A DNA stretch of 64,000 nt from sequence record OK272490.1. One strand, given 5' to 3'. Of the stretch, positions 3,658 to 30,688 are shown in pieces. The position numbers were made by a program, and so were the translations under genes. This DNA comes from Escherichia phage JLBYU32. Position 1 is the first letter of the stretch, and the number at the start of each line of letters is the position of its first letter. The notes beneath the pieces are model-generated. The model saw only the letters and a list, made by a program, of their open reading frames with translations, was not told the origin of the DNA and did no database searches.

Positions 3658-4206
3658 ATGAAGAAGTTGATTCTAGGTTTGTGCTTAATGTTTACAGCAC
3701 ACTTATCTTATGCAGTTGACTGCCCAGAGCTATCAATTAGCCAAAAAGTAAACATGTTAAAAGCTTACCAGTATGGTGAGAATAATATGGGTAAAGGTTG
3801 GGGTATCACTCTAGCTGCTATAGCCTTACAAGAGTCAGAGTTAGGTCTGAAGGTAGAGAATAAAAAGACACACGATTATGGTATTTTCCAGAATCACTTG
3901 AAGACTGTTGTAAAGCGTAACAAAATTAGTCCTAATGTTGCTAAAAAGAAACTCTTAAAAGACTTTGACTATGCTGCGAAGGAGACTCACAAAGAGCTTG
4001 AGTTTTGGACAAAGGTGCATGGTCAACCAAAGTCAAAGAAGACTTTACAAAAAGTTTTAGCATCATATAATGCTGGGTATTCGTACAAAATCCCTAAAGC
4101 TAAGAAATACTCTCAAGATGTCTATAACAATATGAAAGTCATCGCTCAATGTGAATTTGCAACAAACATCTCTAAGGTAAATCATGAAAAAATTAAAAAA
4201 GTCTGA
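3658..4206 (+). CDS. secreted lytic transglycosylase-like protein (SLT domain) with signal peptide
   Basis: N-terminal signal peptide MKKLILGLCLMFTAHLSYA; QESELG...YGIFQ and SYNAGYSY resemble SLT catalytic/AYNAG motifs. Confidence 0.5.
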   Translation: MKKLILGLCLMFTAHLSYAVDCPELSISQKVNMLKAYQYGENNMGKGWGITLAAIALQESELGLKVENKKTHDYGIFQNHLKTVVKRNKISPNVAKKKLLKDFDYAAKETHKELEFWTKVHGQPKSKKTLQKVLASYNAGYSYKIPKAKKYSQDVYNNMKVIAQCEFATNISKVNHEKIKKV

Positions 4207-4879
4207 TGAAGTACTGTGTCATGCTTACGACTTACATCCTCATGAGTTAGGTCTTGATTCCTGTGTATGGACTCCAGAACAGTGTAGGGATTTTGAAGAC
4301 ACTGCAAGAGAAGTTGTATGTTCACTGGAAGAGTTCCACACATCAGAACCAATTGTGAACGTTGTGGACAAAGAGACTGGACAAACTATAGGTGTAAGGC
4401 GTGATAGTTTAGTCATAGTCAATAAAGACCTTGTAGAAAAAGGTAACCTCATCTTAGCAGATATTGATGGCGTTCTTACAAATTTTAATCACGAAGATTG
4501 CTCAACGGAGTTGACTGATGGGTCATTCTCACAGTACACTAATCTTCTTGATTCTGTAAGAGCAAAGCCAACATATGTTTTCAACATTATTGATGCAATT
4601 GCTAATCATGCTGCCGTTGGACTCTTGACAGCAAGAGGTGAATCTCAGAGAATACCTACTGAGATGTTTTTAAGGCACAATATAGAGCATGATTACTTGC
4701 TTTTTATGCGTGGTTTTGGAACTAACTCTATAAGTGCAGAAAGTTTGAAAGTGAGGATGATTCAGTCTTGCATTCTTCCTTACTTTAATATAGTATGCTT
4801 TATAGAAGATACAGAGAATAATGTTAAGAAGGTAAACAGAATCCTTCCACACATTAAAACTATGTTAGTTAAACATTGA
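4184..4879 (+). CDS. hypothetical protein, possible HAD-family phosphatase
   Basis: LILADIDGVLTNF resembles HAD motif I (DxDGxL); GLLTAR possible motif II; weak. Confidence 0.35.
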   Translation: MKKLKKSDEVLCHAYDLHPHELGLDSCVWTPEQCRDFEDTAREVVCSLEEFHTSEPIVNVVDKETGQTIGVRRDSLVIVNKDLVEKGNLILADIDGVLTNFNHEDCSTELTDGSFSQYTNLLDSVRAKPTYVFNIIDAIANHAAVGLLTARGESQRIPTEMFLRHNIEHDYLLFMRGFGTNSISAESLKVRMIQSCILPYFNIVCFIEDTENNVKKVNRILPHIKTMLVKH

Positions 4880-22138: not shown

Positions 22139-23554
22139 ATGAGCGAGTTATTTAAACATGCGCACCTTCATGCAGGTCGAACTGAAAATGGTGCTGTAAA
22201 CCATACTTCATCAATGTCTTCTCTGGTAGACTTTTACAAAGCCGCTGGCTCAAGCCGTAGTAATGTAGAAATCTTACCAGACCTGTTCTACAAAGCTTTG
22301 CGTGAGGATGTTGATGTTGCAGTTCGTATTTTGCTTCATATGCGAGATGTACGAGAAGGTATGGGTGAGCGTAAAGCTTTCCGAACTGTTTTACTTCAAG
22401 CGATTGAAGATAAAGTTTTAGAGCCTACGCAGGTTCTTCGCATTATGGGTAAGATTGCAGAACTTGGTCGTTTTGATGACTTCAAAATCTTCGCAGGTAC
22501 TCGTTTTGAGACAGATGCCTTCAAACATTTAGAAGCAGCATTACTAGACCCTGCAACAGCAGGTTTAGCAGCTAAGTGGTTGCCACGAGTAAAACCACGC
22601 CACAAACAGTTTGTAAAACGTTTCTGCAAGTTTGCAAACTTAAGTGAGAAGGAGTATCGCACACTGTTGTCTGCACTGTCTGATACGGTTGAGCAAAAAA
22701 TCTCTGCTAATGAGTTTGGTAAGATTGACTACAGCAAGATTCCTTCACTCGCTGCTGCACGTTACCAAAAACTCTTTAACCGTAAAGATGGGGAACGTTA
22801 CAAAGCTTACATTGAGTCCCTCTCAAAAGGTGAGGCTAAGATTAACGCTGGCGCTGTTTACCCATACGATGTGATTAAATCTATCAAGTATGGTAATGCA
22901 GATGTTGCTAATGAGCAGTGGAAAGCACTACCAAACTGGATGGCAGAAGGTGAAAACATCCTGTGTATGACTGATGTTTCAAGCTCAATGTCTTGGGTGA
23001 ATCTTGGTTCAATCACTGCCCTTGATATTGGTGTATCACTTGCATTGTATGTAGCAGAACGCAATACAGGTTGCTTTAAAAATGAGTTAATGGTGTACTC
23101 AACAGACCCTCATTTCATCGAACTGAGTGGTGATTTACAGACTCGTATGCGTCAAGTAATGAGTCATGTTGAATATGGTTCAACTTACTTACAAGCAGCT
23201 TTTGACCGTATTCTTGAGATAGGTAAAAGAAACAACTTGACTCAGGAAGATATGCCAAGTAAGCTTATCATCTTCTCCGATATGGAGTTCAATCAGGTTG
23301 ATGGTGCTAACGGTCGTACAAACTTTGAAGCAATTCAGAGTAAGTACAAAAAAGCTGGATATGAGATGCCACAACTGGTATTCTGGTACTTAGCAAACCG
23401 TAATGGCACTTGCGAAGTATCTGTTAAGGATAACGGTGTAGCAATGGTATCTGGTTTCTCTCCAGCCACTTTAAAAGCTCTGCTTGGTGGTGAGAAGTTT
23501 GACCCAATCAGCGTAATGCTCAAAGCAGTAATGATTGACCGTTACATTTGGTAA
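22139..23554 (+). CDS. vWA-domain protein with MIDAS-like DxSxS motif (Ro60/TROVE- or DUF2828-like architecture)
   Basis: alpha-helical N-terminal half; CMTDVSSSMS MIDAS-like motif and FSDMEF in C-terminal half; 471 aa. Confidence 0.45.
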   Translation: MSELFKHAHLHAGRTENGAVNHTSSMSSLVDFYKAAGSSRSNVEILPDLFYKALREDVDVAVRILLHMRDVREGMGERKAFRTVLLQAIEDKVLEPTQVLRIMGKIAELGRFDDFKIFAGTRFETDAFKHLEAALLDPATAGLAAKWLPRVKPRHKQFVKRFCKFANLSEKEYRTLLSALSDTVEQKISANEFGKIDYSKIPSLAAARYQKLFNRKDGERYKAYIESLSKGEAKINAGAVYPYDVIKSIKYGNADVANEQWKALPNWMAEGENILCMTDVSSSMSWVNLGSITALDIGVSLALYVAERNTGCFKNELMVYSTDPHFIELSGDLQTRMRQVMSHVEYGSTYLQAAFDRILEIGKRNNLTQEDMPSKLIIFSDMEFNQVDGANGRTNFEAIQSKYKKAGYEMPQLVFWYLANRNGTCEVSVKDNGVAMVSGFSPATLKALLGGEKFDPISVMLKAVMIDRYIW

Positions 23555-23572
23555 AAAGTTTCAAAAAGGGTA

Positions 23573-23601
23573 TTGACAATATGTTTGATACCCTTTAATA
23601 T
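23573..23601 (+). promoter_or_regulatory. sigma70-like promoter TTGACA-17-TAATAT overlapped by palindrome GGGTATTGACAATA...ATACCC
   Basis: consensus boxes; inverted repeat spans the -35; upstream of tRNA cluster. Confidence 0.55.
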
Positions 23602-23663
23602 GTTCTACATAGAAACGAAATGAGAGCTTTTCTAAGATACTGAAAAATATTTTAAAAAAGTTC

Positions 23664-23692
23664 TTGACAATCACTAAAAAATAATGTTAAAG
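23664..23692 (+). promoter_or_regulatory. candidate promoter TTGACA with weak -10, just upstream of first tRNA
   Basis: TTGACA at 23664; -10 ambiguous. Confidence 0.3.
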
Positions 23693-23719
23693 TGGTTACA
23701 TAGAGTTTGAAAAGTTTAT

Positions 23720-23796
23720 CTCTGTTTAGCTCAGCTTGGTAGAGCGTTCCGTTTGGGGCGGTAAGGCCGGAGGTTCAAGTCCTCCAACAGAGACCA
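23720..23796 (+). tRNA. tRNA-Pro (anticodon TGG)
   Basis: hand-folded cloverleaf; 7-bp acceptor, T-arm GGAGG-TTCAAGT-CCTCC, CCA encoded. Confidence 0.7.
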
Positions 23797-23803
23797 AATT
23801 AAT

Positions 23804-23881
23804 GTTCCAGTAGACAAAACGGTAAAGTCACCACTCTTTCAAAGTGGATATTTGAGGGCTCAAATCCCTTCTGGAACGCCA
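23804..23881 (+). tRNA. tRNA-Glu (anticodon TTC), atypical T-loop CTCAAAT
   Basis: perfect acceptor and anticodon stems; loop CTTTCAA. Confidence 0.7.
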
Positions 23882-23883
23882 GT

Positions 23884-23963
23884 TTTGACAGAAGACCAAT
23901 TACAGCAAGTTTAATCTTATTCATCTGACACGAAATCGGACAAAGAAGAGATTTGGTCTGGTC
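23884..23963 (+). repeat. tRNA spacer element CAGAAGACC..ACAGCAA ... TTGGTCTGG (copy 1)
   Basis: long-range inverted repeat AGACC/GGTCT; recurs at least 4 times between tRNAs. Confidence 0.6.
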
Positions 23964-23972
23964 ATTAAGAAT

Positions 23973-24049
23973 TGCGGGTATAGAGAAAGGGCGTCTCACA
24001 TGTCTCATTAGCATGGTATCGGCAGGTTCGACTCCTGCACCCGCCTCCA
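23973..24049 (+). tRNA. tRNA-Met (anticodon CAT)
   Basis: anticodon loop CTCATTA; T-arm GCAGG-TTCGACT-CCTGC; 1-72 mismatch. Confidence 0.65.
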
Positions 24050-24050
24050 A

Positions 24051-24117
24051 TTTTGCAGAAGACCGTATGCAGCAATAAACTACTTTTTGCGGATAAAAGA
24101 AAAAACACGGTCTGGCA
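24051..24117 (+). repeat. tRNA spacer element (copy 2)
   Basis: TTTTGCAGAAGACCGTATGCAGCAA ... CACGGTCTGGC. Confidence 0.6.
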
Positions 24118-24126
24118 ATGTATTAA

Positions 24127-24203
24127 GGTTAGGAAGCACATAAGGTATGTGCGGTCGCCTGTTAAGCGAATGGCACAGGGTTCGAATCCCTGACTAACCG
24201 CCA
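24127..24203 (+). tRNA. tRNA-Asn (anticodon GTT)
   Basis: loop CTGTTAA; T-arm CAGGG-TTCGAAT-CCCTG. Confidence 0.75.
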
Positions 24204-24212
24204 AATTTAAAT

Positions 24213-24300
24213 GTGTCGTTATCCCGTAGATGGTAGCGGTGGGGACTGTAAATCCCTTGTCATTGAGACTCGGTAGGTTCGACTCCTACACGGCACACCA
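24213..24300 (+). tRNA. tRNA-Tyr (anticodon GTA), long variable arm
   Basis: 88 nt; loop CTGTAAA; T-arm GTAGG-TTCGACT-CCTAC. Confidence 0.7.
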
Positions 24301-24306
24301 AATAAA

Positions 24307-24384
24307 GGTTATGTAGTTTAATCTGGTTAAAATACTCCCCTGTCACGGGAGATGATGAGGGTTCAAATCCCTTCGTAACCGCCA
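24307..24384 (+). tRNA. tRNA-Asp (anticodon GTC)
   Basis: anticodon stem CTCCC/GGGAG, loop CTGTCAC. Confidence 0.75.
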
Positions 24385-24442
24385 ATTTTGAGAGGGCTAT
24401 TTAGCCCCTCCCTTAAAGAGTTCTTACGAGTATTCTTTAAAG

Positions 24443-24514
24443 GAGCAGAAGACCAAATACAGCAAATACGTATGATATTTTCAAGCCAATTTAATTTTGA
24501 AAAAATTTAAAACT
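24443..24514 (+). repeat. tRNA spacer element (copy 3)
   Basis: GCAGAAGACCAAATACAGCAA ... AACTTGGTCTGGC. Confidence 0.6.
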
Positions 24515-24520
24515 TGGTCT

Positions 24521-24668
24521 GGCTCAACAATTTTACAGAAGACCGTTTACAGCAAAACTTAAACAATCTATTTCTCGGTAAAGAAAAGGAGAAGGTTCGA
24601 TTCCTTCACTCGACAGATGTCGAGTTGGTGTAATGGTAGCACTTAAGATGATAAACAACGGTCTGGTA
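24521..24668 (+). repeat. tRNA spacer element (copy 4) containing a tRNA-like fragment
   Basis: TTTTACAGAAGACCGTTTACAGCAA ... AACGGTCTGG. Confidence 0.6.
24585..24640 (+). pseudogene. tRNA-like fragment: T-arm then acceptor-like hairpin then D-arm-like segment (degenerate or permuted tRNA?)
   Basis: GAAGG-TTCGATT-CCTTC then ACTCGAC-AGAT-GTCGAGT then TGGTGTAATGGTAGCAC; no canonical cloverleaf in normal order. Confidence 0.25.
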
Positions 24669-24817
24669 ATCATCTTTGCAGTAGCTTATGTGGCTAATTA
24701 TGTCGTCCCATGAGTGCCGATGAATTTCCTTAGCATGATTCTAGATTAGCTTAATAGGAAATGACTCTACAGACCCTTTAGCAAGGTCTGCGTAGGTTAC
24801 TGCAAAGATGATTTAAT

Positions 24818-24892
24818 GGAAGTGTAGCAGAATGGTGATGCGGCAGACTTTTAATCTGACAGGCGATGGGTTCGAATCCCTCCACTTCTACC
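24818..24892 (+). tRNA. tRNA-Lys (anticodon TTT)
   Basis: loop CTTTTAA; paralog of tRNA at 26051 (shared T-arm GATGGGTTCRAWTCCCTCC). Confidence 0.65.
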
Positions 24893-24897
24893 AAAAT

Positions 24898-24974
24898 GGT
24901 TCAGTCGCAGATAAGGTAATGCAGGGGTCTCATAAGCCCTATGAATGTGGGTTCGATTCCCATCTGAACCTCCA
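24898..24974 (+). tRNA. tRNA with anticodon CAT (Met, or Ile via lysidine)
   Basis: loop CTCATAA; perfect acceptor GGTTCAG/CTGAACC. Confidence 0.7.
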
Positions 24975-24976
24975 AT

Positions 24977-25051
24977 TGTGGGTTAGCATAAATGGTAATG
25001 CAAACGGCTGATAACCGTTAGAAGAGGGTTCGATACCCTCACCTACAACCA
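24977..25051 (+). tRNA. tRNA-Ile (anticodon GAT)
   Basis: anticodon stem AACGG/CCGTT, loop CTGATAA. Confidence 0.75.
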
Positions 25052-25066
25052 ATTTCAATAAAGTTG

Positions 25067-25095
25067 TTGACATTTAGATGTGACCACTTTATAGT
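25067..25095 (+). promoter_or_regulatory. sigma70-like promoter TTGACA-17-TATAGT inside tRNA cluster
   Basis: consensus boxes; followed by ~200 nt of structured non-tRNA sequence before next tRNA. Confidence 0.6.
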
Positions 25096-25299
25096 AACCT
25101 TAGTTTTCGTTGCGTAGCGTCTATTTTGCAAATTTAAAATAAATGCAAACGACAATGTTTTTCTGGCAGTAGCTTGATAGGCTAAACACCAGTGAGGTCT
25201 TCCAATCCCTCATCAAAGAATTTGGCGTACTAGCCCACGGTATGATTAATAAAGTGGGCATCTTTAAGGGCTTTCTAAGAGAGTCTTTAAAGATAATTA

Positions 25300-25381
25300 C
25301 GGGGCGTATCTCAGCTGTCTTCTAAACAGCCGTTAACCGAGTAAGTGGAGTATGCGGGTTCGAGTCCTGCCGCCTCGACCA
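25300..25381 (+). tRNA. atypical tRNA-like gene (possible anticodon TCT, Arg); fold uncertain
   Basis: good acceptor and T-arm (GCGGG-TTCGAGT-CCTGC) but non-canonical D region; hairpin GCTGT-CTTCTAA-ACAGC. Confidence 0.35.
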
Positions 25382-25524
25382 ATTTAGTTAGCAGATTACT
25401 TAGACGACCTAAGCGGGTCTTCCTGTAGGGAGGTGGTCTGTATCTCATGTTTTCCAGAACATGTAAATAATCTGAGAAGGGGCTTTACAGTGTTGAGATA
25501 ATACGGTAAGCTTCGAATTATAGT

Positions 25525-25606
25525 ATGGGACGATGTTAAGACTCTAAGGCATGAGCAACGGCTTCCAACACCGTTTCAAAGGGGTTCAACTCCTCCGTCC
25601 CATGCC
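25525..25606 (+). tRNA. atypical tRNA, possibly tRNA-Trp (anticodon CCA) with oversized D region
   Basis: perfect 7-bp acceptor ATGGGAC/GTCCCAT, T-loop TTCAACT; candidate anticodon loop TTCCAAC. Confidence 0.4.
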
Positions 25607-25620
25607 AAAGTCTTATTAGG

Positions 25621-25708
25621 GGTAGGTAGCGGCTAATGGTAGCCAAACTGTCTTGAAAACAGTTGCCACTGTAGAGATACGGTGAGGGTTCGACTCCTTT
25701 ACTTACCG
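25621..25708 (+). tRNA. tRNA-Ser (anticodon TGA), long variable arm
   Basis: 88 nt; anticodon stem ACTGT/ACAGT loop CTTGAAA; CCA not encoded. Confidence 0.7.
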
Positions 25709-25855
25709 CCTAATAAGATTTAAAGCCAAGCTTCATTCGGATGTTGCTTTGGTATACCGCGTGTATTGTTGTACACACAGATAAAACACCTAGTAGGTGT
25801 CACGGAGAAGAGATAATATCAAGCTCTCCAAAGGTTCTAGTCACCGGATTAAACA

Positions 25856-25880
25856 AGACTATGCAAAGACCTTTTTAGGT
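25856..25880 (+). terminator. hairpin + T-tract inside tRNA cluster spacer
   Basis: AAGACC-TTTTT-AGGTCTT followed by TTTTAGAG. Confidence 0.4.
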
Positions 25881-25966
25881 CTTTTTAGAGGGCTTCTAAG
25901 GTTATTAGTCGCTTGTTGTGGAACCTTGTTGCTCAGGTTCTTAGAAGTTCTCTAAAAAGATTTAAT

Positions 25967-26043
25967 GCACCTATAGCCCAACTGGTGGAGGCAGCAGACT
26001 TAGAATCTGCTCAGTGTGAGTTCGAATCTCTCTAGGTGTACCA
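25967..26043 (+). tRNA. tRNA with anticodon TAG (Leu by anticodon) but class I (short variable loop) shape
   Basis: anticodon stem GCAGA/TCTGC loop CTTAGAA; 77 nt; discriminator A. Confidence 0.6.
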
Positions 26044-26050
26044 AATTAAT

Positions 26051-26126
26051 GCAGGTGTAGCAAAATGGTTATGCGGCTGACTCTTAATCAGTAAGACGAT
26101 GGGTTCAATTCCCTCCACCTGTACCA
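26051..26126 (+). tRNA. tRNA-Lys (anticodon CTT)
   Basis: loop CTCTTAA; paralog of tRNA-Lys(TTT) at 24818. Confidence 0.65.
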
Positions 26127-26132
26127 AACATT

Positions 26133-26208
26133 GGGGTCATAGTTTATATGGTTAAAATTCGAGTTTTGCAAACTTGGGAACTGAGTTCAATTCTCAGTGA
26201 CTCCACCA
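26133..26208 (+). tRNA. tRNA-Ala (anticodon TGC)
   Basis: G3:U70 wobble pair in acceptor stem; loop TTTGCAA; T-arm CTGAG-TTCAATT-CTCAG. Confidence 0.8.
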
Positions 26209-26214
26209 ATTAGT

Positions 26215-26289
26215 GCATCCATAGTTTAAACGGGAAAATTACAGTCTTCCAAACTGAGGTTGAGGGTTCGATTCCCTCTGGATGCTCCA
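26215..26289 (+). tRNA. tRNA-Gly (anticodon TCC)
   Basis: perfect acceptor GCATCCA/TGGATGC; loop CTTCCAA. Confidence 0.75.
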
Positions 26290-26296
26290 AATTAAT

Positions 26297-26372
26297 GCTC
26301 CTATCGTATAATTGGCTATTACGGTTGCCTTGTAAGCAACTTATCAGGGTTCGAATCCTTGTGGGAGCACCA
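26297..26372 (+). tRNA. tRNA-Thr (anticodon TGT)
   Basis: anticodon stem GTTGC/GCAAC loop CTTGTAA. Confidence 0.8.
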
Positions 26373-26467
26373 ATTCAGAGGTCAAGTGAAAGACCGCTTT
26401 GAGTCAACTGAAGACCGTAACAAATTCCACGGAGTTGAGTTAGCGGCACAACTCCAGACCTCTTTCA

Positions 26468-26543
26468 TACTCGCTTAGTTTATATGGTAAAACATCACCC
26501 TTACAAGATGAAGAAAAAGGTTCAAGTCCTTTAGTGAGTACCA
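26468..26543 (+). tRNA. tRNA-Val (anticodon TAC)
   Basis: T-arm AAAGG-TTCAAGT-CCTTT; loop CTTACAA. Confidence 0.65.
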
Positions 26544-26544
26544 T

Positions 26545-26622
26545 GTTCCAGTATCCCAATTGGCAGAGGATGCAAGCTCAAACCTTGTACTAGTGACGGT
26601 TCGAATCCGTCTTGGAACACCA
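26545..26622 (+). tRNA. tRNA with anticodon CAA (Leu by anticodon), class I shape
   Basis: T-arm GACGG-TTCGAAT-CCGTC; loop CTCAAAC; discriminator A. Confidence 0.6.
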
Positions 26623-26627
26623 ATTTT

Positions 26628-26703
26628 GCAGGATTAGTTCAAATGGAAAGAGCAACAGTCTACGAAGCTGTTAATAGGGGTTCGAATCCCTTATCCTGCG
26701 CCA
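26628..26703 (+). tRNA. tRNA-Arg (anticodon ACG)
   Basis: perfect acceptor GCAGGAT/ATCCTGC; loop CTACGAA. Confidence 0.8.
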
Positions 26704-26722
26704 ATTTAAAGAGGCTATTTAG

Positions 26723-27280
26723 ATGAGATATTTGAAGTATGCTTCATGGATTTTCTTAGCTTTGTTAGAGCCATTTGCAGCAATCTTAGCAGTTATCTTA
26801 GCACCTTTTGTAGTTCCATTCTACAGTGAGAAGAAAGGACACTTACCTTTCGGGTTCAGATGGATGGAGACATATGACAACCCAATTGATGGTGATGAAG
26901 GTCACGTTAAAAGATGGGCTAATATTAGATGGATTGGTAAACTAGGTGTCTACATGCAAAGAGTCGGATGGCTCTGGAGAAACAAAGCTTATAACTTCTC
27001 TTACCATGTATTAGGAAGAGATGTAAAAGATGTTACTAAGTGGAAAGGTAATATCAACGTAAGTTCTGACCCCGAAGATAATCAGACAGGTTATCTCCTA
27101 ATGTGGAACAGTAATGCTTGGGGATTATTCGCTTTTATCCCATCAATTAAAATCTTTGGTAAACAATTTTACTGGAGAATTTATATTGGATGGAAACTAA
27201 AAAGTGTTGTCCCAGAAGAAAGAGCATTCTCAAGGGAAAGAGTTATGTTGGCATTCTTTATTCATCCACTGAGAAAGTAA
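26723..27280 (+). CDS. hypothetical membrane-anchored, Trp-rich protein embedded in tRNA cluster
   Basis: AAAGAGG RBS 8 nt upstream of ATG; N-terminal hydrophobic segment. Confidence 0.55.
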   Translation: MRYLKYASWIFLALLEPFAAILAVILAPFVVPFYSEKKGHLPFGFRWMETYDNPIDGDEGHVKRWANIRWIGKLGVYMQRVGWLWRNKAYNFSYHVLGRDVKDVTKWKGNINVSSDPEDNQTGYLLMWNSNAWGLFAFIPSIKIFGKQFYWRIYIGWKLKSVVPEERAFSRERVMLAFFIHPLRK

Positions 27281-27288
27281 AGATTTAA

Positions 27289-27364
27289 AGGGGATTAGTT
27301 TACAAGGTTAAAACCTCGGTCTTTGAAATCGAAGAAGTTGGTTCAATTCCAACATCCCCCGCCA
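27289..27364 (+). tRNA. tRNA-Gln (anticodon TTG)
   Basis: T-arm GTTGG-TTCAATT-CCAAC; loop CTTTGAA. Confidence 0.7.
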
Positions 27365-27366
27365 AT

Positions 27367-27445
27367 GCTCCATTACTCCAATTGGCAGAGAGGCCAGACT
27401 TAAAATCTGTGTTATGTATCGGTTCGAATCCGATATGGAGTACCA
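27367..27445 (+). tRNA. tRNA with anticodon TAA (Leu by anticodon), class I-like shape
   Basis: T-arm ATCGG-TTCGAAT-CCGAT; loop CTTAAAA; discriminator A. Confidence 0.6.
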
Positions 27446-27450
27446 AATTT

Positions 27451-27526
27451 AGCGGTATAGCATAACTGGCAATGCAGCAGCCTCTGAAGCTGTCCTATTA
27501 AGGTTCAAATCCTTATGCCGCTGCCA
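27451..27526 (+). tRNA. tRNA-Gln (anticodon CTG)
   Basis: T-arm TAAGG-TTCAAAT-CCTTA; loop CTCTGAA. Confidence 0.65.
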
Positions 27527-27557
27527 CTTCTAAGGATTCTTGCGAGAGTCCTTAAAT

Positions 27558-27633
27558 GTGGCCTTATCATAAATGGTAATGACCCATGCTGTGAACATGG
27601 TCTATACGGGTTCAAATCCCGTAGGTCACCCCA
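27558..27633 (+). tRNA. tRNA-His (anticodon GTG)
   Basis: anticodon stem CCATG/CATGG loop CTGTGAA; discriminator C. Confidence 0.75.
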
Positions 27634-27639
27634 ATTTAT

Positions 27640-27715
27640 AGTCCAAGTAGCTTATATGGTTAAAGCGCGTGTCTGAAAAACATGAGAAGAGGGTTCGAAT
27701 CCCACTGGACTACCA
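27640..27715 (+). tRNA. tRNA-Phe (anticodon GAA)
   Basis: loop CTGAAAA; T-loop TTCGAAT; acceptor pairing slightly ambiguous. Confidence 0.65.
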
Positions 27716-27731
27716 ATTTCAAAGGTGCTTA

Positions 27732-28466
27732 ATGAAAGAGATGACAGAACAAGGTAAGGAGATTTTTAATCTCTTAAAAACCGGTAGAGGGTTTTCTAAT
27801 CCCCTTATTACTGGTGCAGCAGTTCTCGGTGGAACCGTAGCTGCCTCTACATCACTTGTAAGTTCTATTAGCTCTGTAACAGACCCTACAATGAAGGAGA
27901 AACTTGTTGCTGCTGGACTTACAACAGTCCTTCTAAACAGCTTTACAACAAGCCTTACAAGCACTACAGCGACTACTAAGACCTTAACAGACTATGGTCA
28001 AAAGTCTATTGATGAGTTTTCATCACGTATGCAGGTAGCAAAGGGGTATTCCAATGTTATGGGTGCAGCAGGGGAACAAGTTGGCTGTACACCGTTTAGT
28101 GGTATTATGGGCGTTGCTACAGAATATGGTCAAAAAGCTATTGACACAATTAACAGTGCACTAGATGACGTTAATGATGTATTAAGTGACTTACAAGATG
28201 CTATTGATAAGGGTCTTGATACTGTTTCTGATTTAGCTAATCAGGCTGTTAGCAAGATTAATGAAGGTATCTCGAAGATTACAGCTTATGCAGATGAAGT
28301 TGTGCAGATGATTGAAGAAGAAGCTGCCCTTATTGCAGAGTACCTTAAAACGAATATCAATGGGTTCTTAGCAGGTATCTTACCAGACTGGTTTGATGAT
28401 GCCTGTAAAACTGGTGTAATTGATACTATTGCAACACCAGAAATGAAGAGCGCATTACAGAAGTAA
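27732..28466 (+). CDS. hypothetical Ser/Thr/Ala-rich protein embedded in tRNA cluster
   Basis: start moved to ATG 27732 (track start 27669 is an alternative start inside tRNA-Phe); ends 1 nt before tRNA-Ser. Confidence 0.5.
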   Translation: MKEMTEQGKEIFNLLKTGRGFSNPLITGAAVLGGTVAASTSLVSSISSVTDPTMKEKLVAAGLTTVLLNSFTTSLTSTTATTKTLTDYGQKSIDEFSSRMQVAKGYSNVMGAAGEQVGCTPFSGIMGVATEYGQKAIDTINSALDDVNDVLSDLQDAIDKGLDTVSDLANQAVSKINEGISKITAYADEVVQMIEEEAALIAEYLKTNINGFLAGILPDWFDDACKTGVIDTIATPEMKSALQK

Positions 28467-28467
28467 T

Positions 28468-28560
28468 GGAAGATTAACCCTAAAAGGTAAGGGAGCAGTT
28501 TGCTAAACTGCCAGTAGCTGAGAAATCGGTGTACCAGTTCAAGTCTGGTATCTTCCTCCA
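28468..28560 (+). tRNA. tRNA-Ser (anticodon GCT), long variable arm
   Basis: 93 nt; perfect acceptor GGAAGAT/ATCTTCC; anticodon stem GCAGT/ACTGC loop TTGCTAA. Confidence 0.75.
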
Positions 28561-28564
28561 ATTT

Positions 28565-28640
28565 GAATCCGTGACAGAAATGGCTATGTGCCTGTCTGCA
28601 AAACAGGTTTATAAGGGTTCGAGTCCCTTCGGATTCTCCA
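28565..28640 (+). tRNA. tRNA-Cys (anticodon GCA)
   Basis: perfect acceptor GAATCCG/CGGATTC; anticodon stem CCTGT/ACAGG loop CTGCAAA. Confidence 0.8.
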
Positions 28641-28679
28641 AGTTATTTTACTCTCTCTCTCAATTAAAATAATAATAAT

Positions 28680-28740
28680 GCCCTGCTATAAGTATTCTTC
28701 CTTTCGCTACCGAAGAGTATTTTTAGACAGGGCTTTTTTA
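28680..28740 (+). terminator. long hairpin + T-tract terminator after tRNA cluster
   Basis: GCCCTG ... CAGGGC with internal complementarity followed by TTTTTT. Confidence 0.6.
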
Positions 28741-28804
28741 CAGAGCTATACTTTATAAGAAGACTTATACAGTATGTCTCTGACGTACATTGTGGTTTCT
28801 CCTT

Positions 28805-28830
28805 GACGGTCTCTGTGCCGTCTTTTTTAA
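28805..28830 (+). terminator. hairpin + T-tract
   Basis: GACGG-TCTCTGTG-CCGTC followed by TTTTTT. Confidence 0.5.
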
Positions 28831-28864
28831 GGGGAAACATGGTTAATTATTTGGAGAAAACATA

Positions 28865-29065
28865 ATGAGCGAGACCGTTTATAAAGAACTTTATGAAGCT
28901 AACAAGAAGCTAGAATTTATGCAGAATACTATCATGGCAATTGCAGACAGATTATCTGTAGCAACAGGCATTGATATTAAAGAAGCATCTATGGATGCAC
29001 TTCTTGATGCTGTTGATGCAAAGTTCGAAGTTAAGAAAGAAGAGACTGCTACAGACTCTGAATAA
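28865..29065 (+). CDS. hypothetical small acidic protein upstream of terminase
   Basis: GGAG RBS; first gene of late + strand module. Confidence 0.5.
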   Translation: MSETVYKELYEANKKLEFMQNTIMAIADRLSVATGIDIKEASMDALLDAVDAKFEVKKEETATDSE

Positions 29066-29086
29066 TTCTATTTGCGGAGGTGCTTA

Positions 29087-30688
29087 ATGGACTTAAATGC
29101 TGTTAAGCAGAAGCGAGTGGAAGATGTTAGGAAAGTCCTAGCTGGAGAGTTGGGGCTTTCTGATGAAGTAAAAGAAATTATCAAATCATTCGGTAAAGAC
29201 CCCTCTAAATTCCTTCCAACTCAAATTCTGACTTTATTAAGATACACACCAGACCAAGTTAGACTTATCTTCAAATTGATGACTGATAAGAACTATGTAG
29301 CCCCTCAGCCGGGTTCTCAAGAGGTCTTTTTAAATACTAATGCTGACTTGGTTCTCTATGGTGGTGCTGCGGGTGCTGGTAAAACTGCTGCATTGTTAAT
29401 GGACTCTTTAAGGTTTATTGAAGACCCTAACTATAATGCTGTATATTTCCGTCGAAATACAACACAGTTACAAGGTGGTTTATGGCCTGCTGCAAAGAAA
29501 CTATTTGGTAAGTTTGGTGGGGTTCCTCACGAGCAGAAGATGACTATCACATTCCCTTCTGGGGCAACTATCAAGTTTACCTATCTAGAACTTGAAAAGC
29601 ACGCTGAAGGTCATCAGGGTATTGAATACTCAGCTATTTACTTTGACGAAGGTACACACTTCTCTGCTTCACAGATTTCATACCTACAGACTCGTCTACG
29701 TTCTGGGGCTGAAGGTGATTCATACATGAAGATTTCTATGAACCCAGACAGAGACCACTTTATTTACGATTGGGTAGAACCATTCTTAGATGAAGAAGGC
29801 TACCCAGACCCTGAAAAGTGTGGTCGTATTCGTTGGTATGTAATGAATGATGGTGTTATGGTTTCTGATTGGGAGAGAGACAAGATTCTTGAAATGTTTC
29901 CTCTTGAGATTCCTCAAACATATACATTCATCTCTGGTACGATTGATGATAACCCAATCCTTGACTTCTTAGAGCCTAAGTACCGTGGTAAGTTGGAAAA
30001 CAACACCCCTGTAAACGTTGCAAGACTTCGTTTCGGTAACTGGAAGGCTCGTGCAGAAGGTTCAAACTATTGGCAAAGACAATGGTGTGAGATTGTTGAT
30101 TCACTCCCAGAAGATGTATTCGATGTTAGAGCATGGGACTTAGCAGCAACTTTACCATCTGAGATTAACCCTAATCCAGACTGGACAGCAGGTGTTAAGA
30201 TGGGTAAATCTAAAAAAGACGGTTGCTATTATATCATTGATGTAGTAAGATTTAGAGATAGACCCTCTGGAGTCGAAACACAAATTAATTTGACTGCTGA
30301 AAGTGACGGTAAGCGAACTGGTATTTTTATCCCTCAAGACCCAGGCGCTGCTGGTAAATCCTACGCAACATCCCTCATCAGGAAACTTGCCGAGAAAGGT
30401 TATCGAGCAAGAGCTAAACCAACAAATAAAGATAAAGTTACCCGCTTTGCGGGATTTTCTGCTGCTTCTGAAGCTGGACTTGTAAAAGTCTTGAGAGGTA
30501 GTTGGAATGAAGCTTACTTTCAAGAGCTTGAAGGCTTTTGTGGTGATGGCAAAACTAAAGATGACCAAGTGGATGCTACCAGTGATGCTTTCAACAGTCT
30601 TAACGAAGTTAAATTATTCAAGCCACCATCAATGGGTGCTCACACAGATTTAGTGAGAGGAAACCCGTATGAGGGGCTTAGACGTTGA
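29087..30688 (+). CDS. terL: terminase large subunit
   Basis: Walker A LVLYGGAAGAGKTAAL; start moved to ATG 29087 after GGAGG RBS (track start 29072 is TTG); ~533 aa. Confidence 0.8.
   Translation: MDLNAVKQKRVEDVRKVLAGELGLSDEVKEIIKSFGKDPSKFLPTQILTLLRYTPDQVRLIFKLMTDKNYVAPQPGSQEVFLNTNADLVLYGGAAGAGKTAALLMDSLRFIEDPNYNAVYFRRNTTQLQGGLWPAAKKLFGKFGGVPHEQKMTITFPSGATIKFTYLELEKHAEGHQGIEYSAIYFDEGTHFSASQISYLQTRLRSGAEGDSYMKISMNPDRDHFIYDWVEPFLDEEGYPDPEKCGRIRWYVMNDGVMVSDWERDKILEMFPLEIPQTYTFISGTIDDNPILDFLEPKYRGKLENNTPVNVARLRFGNWKARAEGSNYWQRQWCEIVDSLPEDVFDVRAWDLAATLPSEINPNPDWTAGVKMGKSKKDGCYYIIDVVRFRDRPSGVETQINLTAESDGKRTGIFIPQDPGAAGKSYATSLIRKLAEKGYRARAKPTNKDKVTRFAGFSAASEAGLVKVLRGSWNEAYFQELEGFCGDGKTKDDQVDATSDAFNSLNEVKLFKPPSMGAHTDLVRGNPYEGLRR

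Follow-up and report, generated by a model that had tools for sequence, protein, structure and literature searches.

The window analysed here is a 64,000-nt stretch of DNA from Escherichia phage JLBYU32 (sequence record OK272490.1), and positions are counted from its first letter. Inside its tRNA cluster, the plus strand of 25067-25381 holds a promoter, an element specifying an RNA of ~200 nt (about 25102-25299), and a non-canonical tRNA. The features are listed below, with RNA letters for the transcribed part; those of the putative message part carry the names of their tmRNA (SsrA) counterparts.

25067..25095, plus strand: sigma-70-type promoter (-35 TTGACA 25067-25072, 17-nt spacer, -10 TATAGT 25090-25095)
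25102..25144, plus strand: 5' domain, from the alignment (near-invariant start AGUUUUCG, a hairpin, then the AUAAAU context)
25122-25127 / 25136-25141, plus strand: 5' hairpin UAUUUU / AAAAUA, read from the window sequence
25139-25144, plus strand: putative frame-setting context AUAAAU, directly before the GCA resume codon
25145..25180, plus strand: tag frame GCA AAC GAC AAU GUU UUU CUG GCA GUA GCU, or ANDNVFLAVA
25145-25147, plus strand: resume codon GCA, start of the 10-codon tag
25175-25177 and 25178-25180, plus strand: tandem in-frame stops UGA and UAG, in or beside the helix-5 apical loop
25163-25166 / 25189-25192, plus strand: helix 5 equivalent, outer stem CUGG / CCAG, by covariation
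25170-25174 / 25180-25184, plus strand: helix 5 equivalent, inner stem UAGCU / GGCUA, by inspection and single-sequence folds
25193..25225, plus strand: pseudoknot A (H-type), by covariation in both stems
25193-25197 / 25208-25212, plus strand: pseudoknot A stem 1, UGAGG / CCUCA (helix 6)
25202-25205 / 25222-25225, plus strand: pseudoknot A stem 2, CCAA / UUGG (helix 7)
25226..25259, plus strand: pseudoknot B (H-type), with a strongly conserved loop GAUUAAUAA
25226-25230 / 25240-25244, plus strand: pseudoknot B stem 1, CGUAC / GUAUG (helix 8)
25233-25238 / 25254-25259, plus strand: pseudoknot B stem 2, GCCCAC / GUGGGC, by inspection of sequences
25260..25299, plus strand: closing hairpin (arms 25260-25276 and 25278-25294) and 5-nt linker
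25300..25381, plus strand: non-canonical co-transcribed tRNA, anticodon loop CUUCUAA (UCU), no D-arm

The promoter TTGACA-17-TATAGT at 25067-25095, which had been proposed in a first-pass annotation of the sequence, is present, and with 11/12 consensus matches it is the top sigma-70 site within 22500-29500, the region of the tRNA cluster. Because the total of promoter-like sites in this region is not above chance (16 found vs 14.6 expected), the consensus match alone is weak proof of a promoter, and support comes instead from position. The promoter is kept in the Ounavirinae relatives, and in 55 of 181 homologous copies the distance from the end of a TTGACA-type promoter to the element's conserved ...TTTCG start is 8-14 nt; these copies come from at least three unrelated phage groups and differ in their promoter sequences. 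Transcription of the element RNA would start at A25102 or G25103.

The folding of the element is supported by its relatives. Across 52 distinct sequences 89% of the cells counted are paired, vs 37-43% when the partners are slid, and two-sided changes occupy 138 cells vs 44 in shuffles, none of 500 shuffles reaching 138. Helices 4 and 5 of the alignment are 98-100% paired in the same 52 sequences. The hairpin CTGGCAGTAGCTTGATAGGCTAAACACCAG, quoted in the first-pass annotation as an example of structure, is real: it lies at 25163-25192 and covaries, its fourth pair being G-C in 34 sequences and A-U in 18 (n=52). In pseudoknot A, stem 1 is 97% paired and stem 2 89%, with two-sided changes at 3/5 and 3/4 pairs, respectively, such as UGAGG/CCUCA to CAAGG/CCUUG in stem 1, and CCAA/UUGG to CCGA/UCGG, CCAG/CUGG or GUCG/CGAC in stem 2. 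Stem 1 of pseudoknot B is 95% paired, again with two-sided changes at 3/5 pairs. The inner helix-5 stem and stem 2 of pseudoknot B are out of register in the MAFFT alignment and were therefore left out of the pair counts; they rest on inspection and single-sequence folds, and the variants of the latter seen by inspection include GCCC/GGGC, GGGAG/CUCCC and CCCUGA/UCAGGG. The 5' domain occupies the place of tmRNA pseudoknot 1 and its upstream sequence. In long-type relatives, helices 1-3 of the 5' pseudoknot are 73-89% paired with a few compensatory changes, and an upstream pseudoknot or hairpin is, on these sequences, plausible, if weakly supported.

Between the 5' domain and helix 5 runs a reading frame that is shared by the family. 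In 134 copies found by pattern, the tags are of 10 codons, rarely 11. As a tag-independent check, copies were also located by an anchor in pseudoknot B, outside the tag; in all 122 of these the 10 codons and the stop are intact and the A at -4 is invariant. In E. coli tmRNA, the choice of frame has been reported to depend chiefly on A86, the base at -4 (PMC2481249). Other tags of the family include ANDDVVLMAA, ANDEQFLAVA, ANEEMYLAVA and ANDDLMLMAA. At codon 10, GCN, each of the four third bases occurs, and similar C-termini are reached via different nucleotides (GCA GUA GCN vs AUG GCG GCN). All three stop codons (UAA, UGA, UAG) are used, frequently in tandem, and a stop codon lies in the helix-5 apical loop in 44/44 distinct sequences that fold under the closed-hairpin criterion (out of 61). 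About half of the tags end in Ala-Ala, the critical feature of the ClpXP degron (bioRxiv 10.1101/2024.01.29.576913), whereas the LAVA-type tags do not. As judged by comparing the copies, the tag frame is under coding-type constraint, part of which could be structural because helix 5 overlaps codons 7-10.

The family spans unrelated enterobacterial and Vibrio phages, lambdoid prophages and phage-plasmids. The core of the element was found in 595 phage records, covering Ounavirinae, Ackermannviridae, Schitoviridae and several siphovirus genera, and in 329 of 5426 E. coli genomes, where 237 of the places are on plasmids and other copies sit in lambdoid prophages, with Q/tR' on one side and the lysis genes on the other. 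The plasmid carriers are ~110-kb phage-plasmids. Its 125-nt core is 71-81% identical in phage families that otherwise share nothing with JLBYU32. tRNA genes adjoin the element in almost every lineage, and copies without a downstream tRNA exist as well, in Schitoviridae, where a terminator follows, and in the lambdoid late leader. All 11 phage records examined, among them members of groups that serve phage therapy and typing, leave the element unannotated, and the searchable literature, which excludes subscription-only papers, yielded no description of such an RNA.

On its 3' side the element ends in the closing hairpin, in whose place sister genomes have a longer helix, here called module X; lambdoid prophages, too, have module X beside the element. 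RNase P would generate the RNA's 3' end by cutting before C25300, as expected from general pre-tRNA processing; the Schitoviridae copies end in an intrinsic terminator instead. The first-pass annotation saw no tRNA fold until 25300, which holds for ARAGORN and for Rfam at gathering score, and a non-canonical tRNA does start at 25300. It has a 23-nt variable region, G3:U70, A73 and CCA, and its anticodon stem has changed twice independently with pairing kept, GCUGU/ACAGC having become UCUGU/ACAGA in one case and GCGGU/ACCGC in the other. This tRNA probably sets the 3' end of the tmRNA-like RNA. We rejected it as the missing tRNA-like domain, the same slot being held by a canonical tRNA-Arg(UCU) in sister genomes, and no duplex between it and the upstream RNA was found beyond those in shuffles. 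A second non-canonical tRNA lies at 25525-25607, and ARAGORN missed both.

A second untranslated stretch, at 25710-25965, had been described as similar to the first. The stretch exists (25711-25966) and has the hairpin ascribed to it, AAAGACC-UUUUU-AGGUCUUU, but this hairpin lies at 25868-25886 and does not end the stretch, being followed by another with 26-nt arms that reaches to 25965. The supposed similarity does not hold: the two are unrelated in sequence and distribution, the second stretch being found only in Ounavirinae, with no tag frame and with covariation at 1/55 predicted pairs. A degenerate second copy of the element at 24640-24817 was also considered and rejected, its local alignment being no better than those of shuffles, and a search of the gaps in the tRNA cluster for a group I intron, a ribozyme or a known Rfam family gave nothing at gathering score. 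Separately, the neighbouring repeats at 23887-24668 contain a permuted tRNA-like module and a closing stem. Bacterial Y RNAs (YrlA) are recognised by a terminal stem that bears GNCGAA(N)G, the Ro-binding motif, by an internal tRNA-like module and by a TROVE-domain Ro60 gene within 4 kb (PMC4201824); in the repeats the GNCGAA motif was not seen, and the 471-aa protein encoded near them is DUF2828+DUF7788, with no TROVE match in Pfam and PDB sequence searches.

tmRNA is seen either as one unit or as two base-paired pieces, and in both its tRNA-like half delivers the message half. The phage element resembles the message half. Using a profile built from the phage copies, nhmmer aligned in register on the tag of E. 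coli ssrA and on the tags of tmRNAs called by ARAGORN. AUAAAU|GCAAAYGA is the resume site of ARAGORN-called tmRNAs of Pelistega, Oligella, a Legionella MAG and a gammaproteobacterial MAG. The likeness to real tmRNAs extends over only about 50-60 nt around the tag, and in part it was imposed by the search pattern. Rfam gave matches to four tmRNA families on the element in the window and in 8 of the 11 phage loci scanned, all below the gathering score: tmRNA (RF00023, clan CL00001) at 16.3 bits (47 required), tmRNA_permuted at 32.5 (47), alpha_tmRNA at 23.8 at most (50) and beta_tmRNA at 18.1 at most (84). No family reached its gathering score in the window or the 8 related loci. Of the 33 phage, plasmid and prophage loci scanned with ARAGORN, 32 gave no tmRNA call, nor did the window; the one call, at the remaining locus (L003), is chimeric, using the 3' end of the downstream tRNA-Met and missing the element's tag. 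Both programs leave the element uncalled because it is without a tRNA-like domain: it has no 5'/3' acceptor stem and no helix 2. A hidden upstream 5' acceptor strand pairing with an NCCA-terminated T-arm module was sought, and only chance or ordinary-tRNA matches came up; nor was an Ala-type acceptor/T-arm module (G3:U70, A73, CCA) found near 182 copies, except for the odd tRNA of Felixounavirus. Recent capture of the host ssrA was rejected as well, since blastn with the element misses E. coli ssrA and the nhmmer similarity lies only at the tag.

Like a one-piece tmRNA such as E. coli ssrA, the phage RNA has an A-rich single strand that leads into a GCA resume codon with U at -5 and A at -4, a 10-codon tag with an A-N-D/E start and a small hydrophobic or Ala end, and tandem stops in the helix-5 loop; the tag has a pseudoknot or hairpin close by on its 5' side and H-type pseudoknots on its 3' side. 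It differs in that its ends form no acceptor stem, D-loop, T-arm or CCA, in lacking the long helix 2, in its length (~200 nt vs 363), and in having two downstream pseudoknots vs three, with no fourth pseudoknot. The coding piece of two-piece (permuted) tmRNAs, known from Alpha- and Betaproteobacteria, cyanobacteria and marine phages such as Melnitz (PMC9004378), is likewise a short RNA with pseudoknot 1, tag and helix 5 that ends soon after; the resume context of the two-piece tmRNAs of Pelistega and Oligella is identical to that of the phage element, and the best Rfam near-match is RF04321, tmRNA_permuted. In real two-piece coding pieces, however, a 5' acceptor strand (GGGGG...) pairs with an acceptor piece encoded just upstream, whereas transcription of the phage RNA would start past the point of such a strand and no acceptor piece was found: there is no GGGG-type strand at the likely start AGUUUUCG, and upstream lie a complete tRNA-Ile and the promoter. 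Among phages, complete tmRNAs are carried by the mycobacteriophage Bxz1 group and Bacillus phage G, and DS6A has a remnant consisting of the tRNA-like domain only (PMC4131195). All are phage-borne derivatives of the ribosome-rescue RNA, and in DS6A, too, a half-molecule persists; DS6A keeps only the tRNA-like half, whereas the present family has only the message half. Earlier censuses based on ARAGORN show nothing of this kind in enterobacterial and Vibrio phages. T4 makes stable non-tRNA RNAs, species 1 and 2 or RNA C and D, that are co-located and co-processed with the phage tRNAs; they are not known to have a tag frame or a tmRNA-like anatomy.

Taken with its resume codon, its 10-codon frame, the stops in a hairpin loop and the two covarying pseudoknots, 25067-25299 is very probably a gene whose product, a phage RNA of ~200 nt, follows the plan of tmRNA (SsrA) in its mRNA-like domain, without the tRNA-like domain. 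The first-pass annotation, which had suggested a small non-coding RNA or leader, was thus right about a discrete, promoter-driven, structured non-tRNA RNA gene, the comparative data speaking strongly against a mere spacer, and had missed the resume codon, the conserved tag frame and the stops in the loop of the very hairpin it quoted.

As to function, we tentatively suggest, at somewhat less than an even chance, that the RNA enters the host rescue pathway as a tag template. It would be transcribed early from the host-type promoter, freed at its 3' end by RNase P at the following tRNA, and would join the host pathway on ribosomes stalled on broken mRNAs. There, SmpB and the ribosome would put GCA in the A site via the conserved -4 A context, and reading of the phage template would give the incomplete protein a phage-specified, ssrA-like tail of the degradation type, with the tRNA-like function supplied from elsewhere, by host tmRNA-SmpB or an unrecognised partner. 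The element's place beside tRNA genes, seen in almost every lineage, is consistent with a part in sustaining host translation while the phage infects. Canonical trans-translation requires an attached tRNA-like domain, and its absence weakens this mechanism. One version, possible though doubtful, is that the free-standing message domain acts in trans, being loaded into the mRNA channel of stalled ribosomes whose A site is empty, whether the tRNA-like domain of host tmRNA-SmpB has entered first or no such domain takes part; in the latter case the 5' pseudoknot and the -4 A context would position the GCA codon. Phage tags of the LAVA or LMAA types would then overwrite the host degradation tag. 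As an explanation of identity and mechanism together, the tag-template account is the best that we have, with an even chance of being right.

Its main rival is that the RNA mimics the message and pseudoknot part of tmRNA as a decoy or sponge. It would bind what recognises that part, be it ribosomal protein S1, the SmpB tail, the mRNA channel of the 30S subunit or RNase R, and so damp or redirect host trans-translation, with the tag left untranslated. Every short-type copy lacks a tRNA-like domain and conservation in the element is highest in the pseudoknots and helix 5, as such mimicry would have it; yet a decoy needs no fixed 10-codon frame, in-frame tandem stops or wobble at a GCN codon 10, nor ssrA-like C-termini kept via different nucleotides, and we consider it unlikely. 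Less probable still is a cryptic complete tmRNA whose tRNA-like domain is unconventional or separately encoded, whether in a two-piece or permuted layout, with a partner RNA elsewhere in the genome, or through tRNA-like modules 3' of the long forms. Long-type relatives do carry tRNA-like cloverleaves closed by GUUGUGGUG/CACCACAAC, in some with a canonical D-arm and T-arm (L054, L040, L084), as well as strings like a tmRNA 3' end (GGUUCGACUCCC..GGCUCCAC and CAGCUCCAC), and D-armless tRNA-likes with A73-CCA follow the Schitoviridae and Felixounavirus copies. These modules, however, are optional between close relatives, have no G3:U70 and no conserved CCA, and are absent from the short form in the window, and a message attached at the 5' side is sterically unlike that of tmRNA, which lies between the D-loop and the T-arm.

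Two simpler accounts appear very improbable. If the stretch were a plain pre-tRNA leader or spacer, the promoter would serve the tRNAs from 25300 onward, upstream of which it indeed lies, and the hairpins would matter only for processing or stability, a role that suits the closing hairpin and the tRNA after it. The identity of the core among otherwise unrelated phage families and the copies that no tRNA follows argue against this, and covarying pseudoknots and a tag frame are foreign to spacers. It is equally hard to credit a small protein gene, in which the AUG inside AUAAAUGCA would open a 9-codon ORF, MQTTMFFWQ, as the functional product. Most copies do have an AUG overlapping the resume codon (a GUG in the phage-plasmid copy L136), and its frame is open for 5-13 codons, but neither length nor sequence is conserved (MQTMI, MQTMMLF, MQTTMFFWQ and MQMMLNFWQWRNS, each ending at a stop), no Shine-Dalgarno sequence precedes the AUG, and the frame-setting context, found in bona fide tmRNAs too, accounts equally well for the AAAU that precedes GCA.

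A promoter-driven message half without a tRNA-like half, its tag frame intact in hundreds of phages, is unexpected, and its carriers include both lytic and temperate phages of enterobacteria, namely Felix O1-like, Vi1-like, N4-like and lambdoid phages and phage-plasmids. Whether tag template or decoy, the RNA would account for a stretch that the phage records leave without annotation. If the tag is translated, these phages rewrite the tag on rescue products, and the rules of template loading in trans-translation need revision. If it is read in trans, trans-translation would have a new, split mode, and phages a widespread strategy for controlling what becomes of rescue products, whereas a decoy would be a new kind of RNA anti-host factor directed against ribosome rescue.

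The window derives from a Felix O1-like myovirus (Felixounavirus, Ounavirinae), and the 1.6 kb surrounding a tmRNA-like RNA gene in it is matched by 306 phage records at 80-98% identity. The gene lies inside a tRNA cluster in which ARAGORN leaves several gaps, one of them (25052-25620) holding the element; no canonical tRNA is called there, in line with what the first-pass annotation had stated for the part up to 25300. The relevant features are the following.

23720-28640, +, tRNA cluster, 25 tRNAs by ARAGORN
25067-25095, +, promoter TTGACA-17-TATAGT
about 25102-25299, +, tmRNA-like element
25163-25192, +, hairpin, helix 5
25193-25225, +, pseudoknot A
25226-25259, +, pseudoknot B
25300-25381, +, non-canonical tRNA missed by ARAGORN: UCU anticodon loop, no D-arm, 23-nt variable region, G3:U70, A73, CCA

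The promoter and the hairpin quoted in that annotation were both recovered, the former as the top sigma-70 match in 22500-29500 (11/12 positions); since this interval holds 16 promoter-like sites versus 14.6 expected, which is not above chance, the match alone means little. A DUF7338 gene (26723-27280, +) and a DUF7217 gene (27669-28466, +) lie between tRNA genes of this cluster.

There is good support for regarding the element as a message domain that derives from tmRNA and is kept by selection. Its widely shared core reads AUAAAU GCA AAC GAC AAU GUU UUU CUG GCA GUA GCU UGA UAG, i.e. the tag ANDNVFLAVA and the two stops UGA UAG; the tag of E. coli tmRNA is ANDENYALAA followed by UAA UAA. As in tmRNA helix 5, the stops of the element lie in the loop of the hairpin 25163-25192. 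The frame was tested by two scans of IMG/VR. The resume-site pattern returned at least 120 loci (134 matches, including a handful of chance hits within coding sequence), with tags of nearly always 10 and in a few cases 11 codons. Because this pattern fixes part of the frame, the scan was redone with an anchor outside the tag, in pseudoknot B, and the 10-codon frame and its stop were intact in 122/122 copies, which carry 17 different tags, including ANDDVVLMAA, ANDEQFLAVA, ANEEMYLAVA and ANDDLMLMAA. Codon 10 is GCN with every third base represented, and the stops are UAA, UGA or UAG, frequently in tandem. The base at -4 is A in all 122 anchored copies, and that at -5 is U apart from four copies with C. 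The resume frame of E. coli tmRNA is set mainly by A86 (-4), with U85 playing a minor part (PMC2481249). Roughly half of the tags have the C-terminus Ala-Ala, which is critical for ClpXP recognition in E. coli (bioRxiv 10.1101/2024.01.29.576913), and the LAVA types end otherwise.

The proposed fold was evaluated on 52 distinct sequences aligned with MAFFT, using a structure specified by us that includes the pseudoknots. The paired cells amount to 89%, versus 37-43% when the 3' partners are slid, and 138 cells are changed on both sides versus 44 in shuffles, none of 500 shuffles reaching 138. The outer helix-5 pair changes from G-C to A-U in 18 of the 52 sequences. Stems 1 and 2 of pseudoknot A are 97% and 89% paired, with 3/5 and 3/4 pairs covarying, and stem 1 of pseudoknot B is 95% paired (3/5 covarying). 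Two further stems, the inner one of helix 5 and stem 2 of pseudoknot B, fall out of the MAFFT register and are based on inspection and single-sequence folds. In such folds the stop codon sits in the apical loop in 44/44 distinct sequences retained by the fold criterion, of 61. The 5' region of the window's copy forms a hairpin UAUUUU/AAAAUA, and that of the larger, long-type relatives may be, with modest support, an H-type pseudoknot ending 6 nt before the resume codon.

A sensitive BLAST of window 25052-25300 against phage records matched 595 of them, including all Ounavirinae, and query positions 85-209 (window 25136-25260) matched intergenic DNA of unrelated phages at 71-81% identity, either without annotation or under dubious 'hypothetical protein' calls. 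These phages are as follows.

Jedunavirus, Swiduovirus, Deseoctovirus, Roufvirus (Vibrio)
Ackermannviridae: Kuttervirus, Taipeivirus, Agtrevirus
Schitoviridae: Ithacavirus, Gamaleyavirus

The element was also found in 329/5426 E. coli genomes, 237 of the places being on plasmids, which among the matches listed are mostly ~100-120 kb and, judged by size and gene content, are taken to be phage-plasmids; these copies adjoin tRNA genes, as the element does nearly everywhere, and carry the tag ANEEVYLAVA. The remaining E. coli copies belong to lambdoid prophages and have the Q antiterminator/tR' on one side and the lysis genes on the other. In 55/181 copies, among them those of Ounavirinae, of an SSU5-like group and of several groups of siphoviruses, a TTGACA-type promoter, whose sequence differs per group, ends 8-14 nt upstream of the conserved ...TTTCG, which places the 5' end at (GAU)AGUUUUCG. 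The other copies lie inside longer transcripts, behind a helix termed module X. In the long-type copies (L003, L017, L018, L054, L084 and L137), which come from siphoviruses, Ackermannviridae and lambdoid prophages, a far larger modular RNA region surrounds the core. Its long helices GGUAAGAGCAUU/AGUGCUCUUUCC are repeated and hold tRNA-like inserts, and it also has a 3' cloverleaf with the closing strands GUUGUGGUG/CACCACAAC as well as strings similar to tmRNA 3' ends (CAGCUCCAC); one module (insert CCCUUAUGGGGCUUGGCUUAAAUGCA) is common to Ounavirinae and lambdoid prophages. Rfam STnc100, a candidate sRNA of Salmonella, has matches in Ackermannviridae at 0.6-1.6 kb downstream of the element, above the gathering score at locus L004 (3617-3831) and as a partial, sub-gathering match at locus L010 (2174-2283; 33.7 bits vs 47).

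A scan of bacteria (one genome per species) with the resume-site pattern gave 42 hits, and within the 25 on which ARAGORN was run, its calls include true tmRNAs whose resume codon is exactly this site.

Pelistega, Oligella and other Alcaligenaceae, two-piece tmRNAs: ANDESYALAA
Legionella MAG, tmRNA: ANDEIYAVAA
gammaproteobacterial MAG, tmRNA: ANDENFAVAA

In the last of these, GCAGUAGCUGCCUAAACACCAG is similar to the phage helix 5. The phage-core profile aligns in register on these bacterial tags with E of 4e-6 to 8e-3, a similarity partly imposed by the pattern, and in register but weakly (1.5 bits) on E. coli ssrA. Consistent sub-gathering Rfam matches (tmRNA, tmRNA_permuted, alpha_tmRNA, beta_tmRNA) were obtained for the window element and 8/11 phage loci scanned. 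Sequence similarity to tmRNA does not extend past about 60 nt around the tag, and a blastn search with the element does not retrieve the host ssrA. Neither the element in the window nor those of the 33 related loci scanned were called as tmRNA by ARAGORN; its single tmRNA call, at L003, takes its 3' end from a downstream tRNA-Met and misses the tag of the element.

The first-pass annotation regarded a second stretch as similar, and it proved to be unrelated. The interval 25711-25966 (+), between tRNA-Ser and tRNA-Leu, is confined to Ounavirinae (253 records), and has neither tag frame nor Rfam match. It consists of successive hairpins and has a nearly invariant core of 110 nt (about 25785-25895), its first hairpin being swapped for an unrelated one in some relatives; the AAAGACC/GGUCUUU hairpin has a conserved stem and a variable loop, and only 1/55 predicted pairs shows a compensatory change. 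Elsewhere in the cluster, a repeat (CAGAAGACCnnnUACAGCAA ... nnnGGUCUGG) occurs in four copies.

23887-23962, +, repeat copy
24054-24118, +, repeat copy
24446-24526, +, repeat copy
24537-24668, +, repeat copy

The closing stems of all four, AGACCnn/nnGGUCU, show compensatory changes at the nn positions. Within the last copy lies a tRNA-like module in circularly permuted order, made up of T-arm, closed acceptor hairpin and D-arm (fold z = -2.8). This topology is known from bacterial Y RNAs (YrlA), although their published GNCGAA motif is not seen there; the adjoining 471-aa ORF (22139-23554) has DUF2828+DUF7788, and no TROVE domain was detected in it. At 24667-24815 (+) lies a very stable 149-nt multibranch RNA with a ~23-bp closing stem (MFE -57 kcal/mol, z = -7.5) and no Rfam match, which has only the string GCAGUAGCUU..GGCUAA in common with helix 5, the overall alignment being not significant.

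An unbroken tag frame, tandem stops and conservation of the frame-setting A all speak for ribosomes reading the element, and, as the frame has no start codon or Shine-Dalgarno, the rescue pathway is the only known route. A spacer or a small ORF is an unlikely reading, and the overlapping AUG frame, 5 to 13 codons long, lacks conservation. The rescue pathway normally requires a tRNA-like domain, either covalently or base-paired, and none was found for the element; upstream 7-mers pairing with a downstream T-arm-NCCA module were chance matches only. A translationally silent decoy is the main rival of the tag-template reading favoured below, at a fairly low probability, and a cryptic tRNA-like partner is given a somewhat lower one.

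The tRNA at 25300-25381 was considered as such a domain, since G3:U70 and A73, identity marks of alanine, resemble the alanine-accepting tRNA-like domain. It was rejected: sister Felixounavirus and Mooglevirus genomes have an ordinary tRNA-Arg(UCU) in the exact slot, its intermolecular pairing is not beyond shuffles, and a comparable module is absent near 182 other copies. Among relatives its anticodon stem has undergone two independent compensatory changes, which indicates a functional, if odd, tRNA; most likely it merely supplies the RNase P site that forms the 3' end of the RNA. Other groups have other 3' ends.

Kolesnikvirus: tRNA-Leu
Ithacavirus and related Schitoviridae: intrinsic terminator
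siphoviruses, Ackermannviridae, lambdoid prophages: long helices and tRNA-like cloverleaves

In phage tootiki and others, a free-standing HNH endonuclease gene follows the odd tRNA precisely (3966-4364 in locus L001), in a slot corresponding to that between window 25384 and 25385, where the window lacks it. Neither ARAGORN nor Rfam detects a second non-canonical tRNA (25525-25607, +), which has a CCA anticodon, Trp-like identity (A1-U72 and G73), a C31-A39 mismatch and a 24-nt D region replacing the normal D-arm; it would be the only tRNA-Trp of the phage.

Censuses with ARAGORN-type detection have reported complete tmRNAs in mycobacteriophages, phage G and marine phages (PMC4131195, PMC9004378), and a tRNA-like-domain-only remnant in DS6A (PMC4131195). 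Our searches for tmRNA-like phage RNAs, tag peptides and the sequence string found no description of the element in the literature covered, which is that outside subscription journals. We tentatively favour a reading in which stalled ribosomes would use the phage RNA as a tag template, while the tRNA-like function would be supplied in trans or in an unrecognised way.
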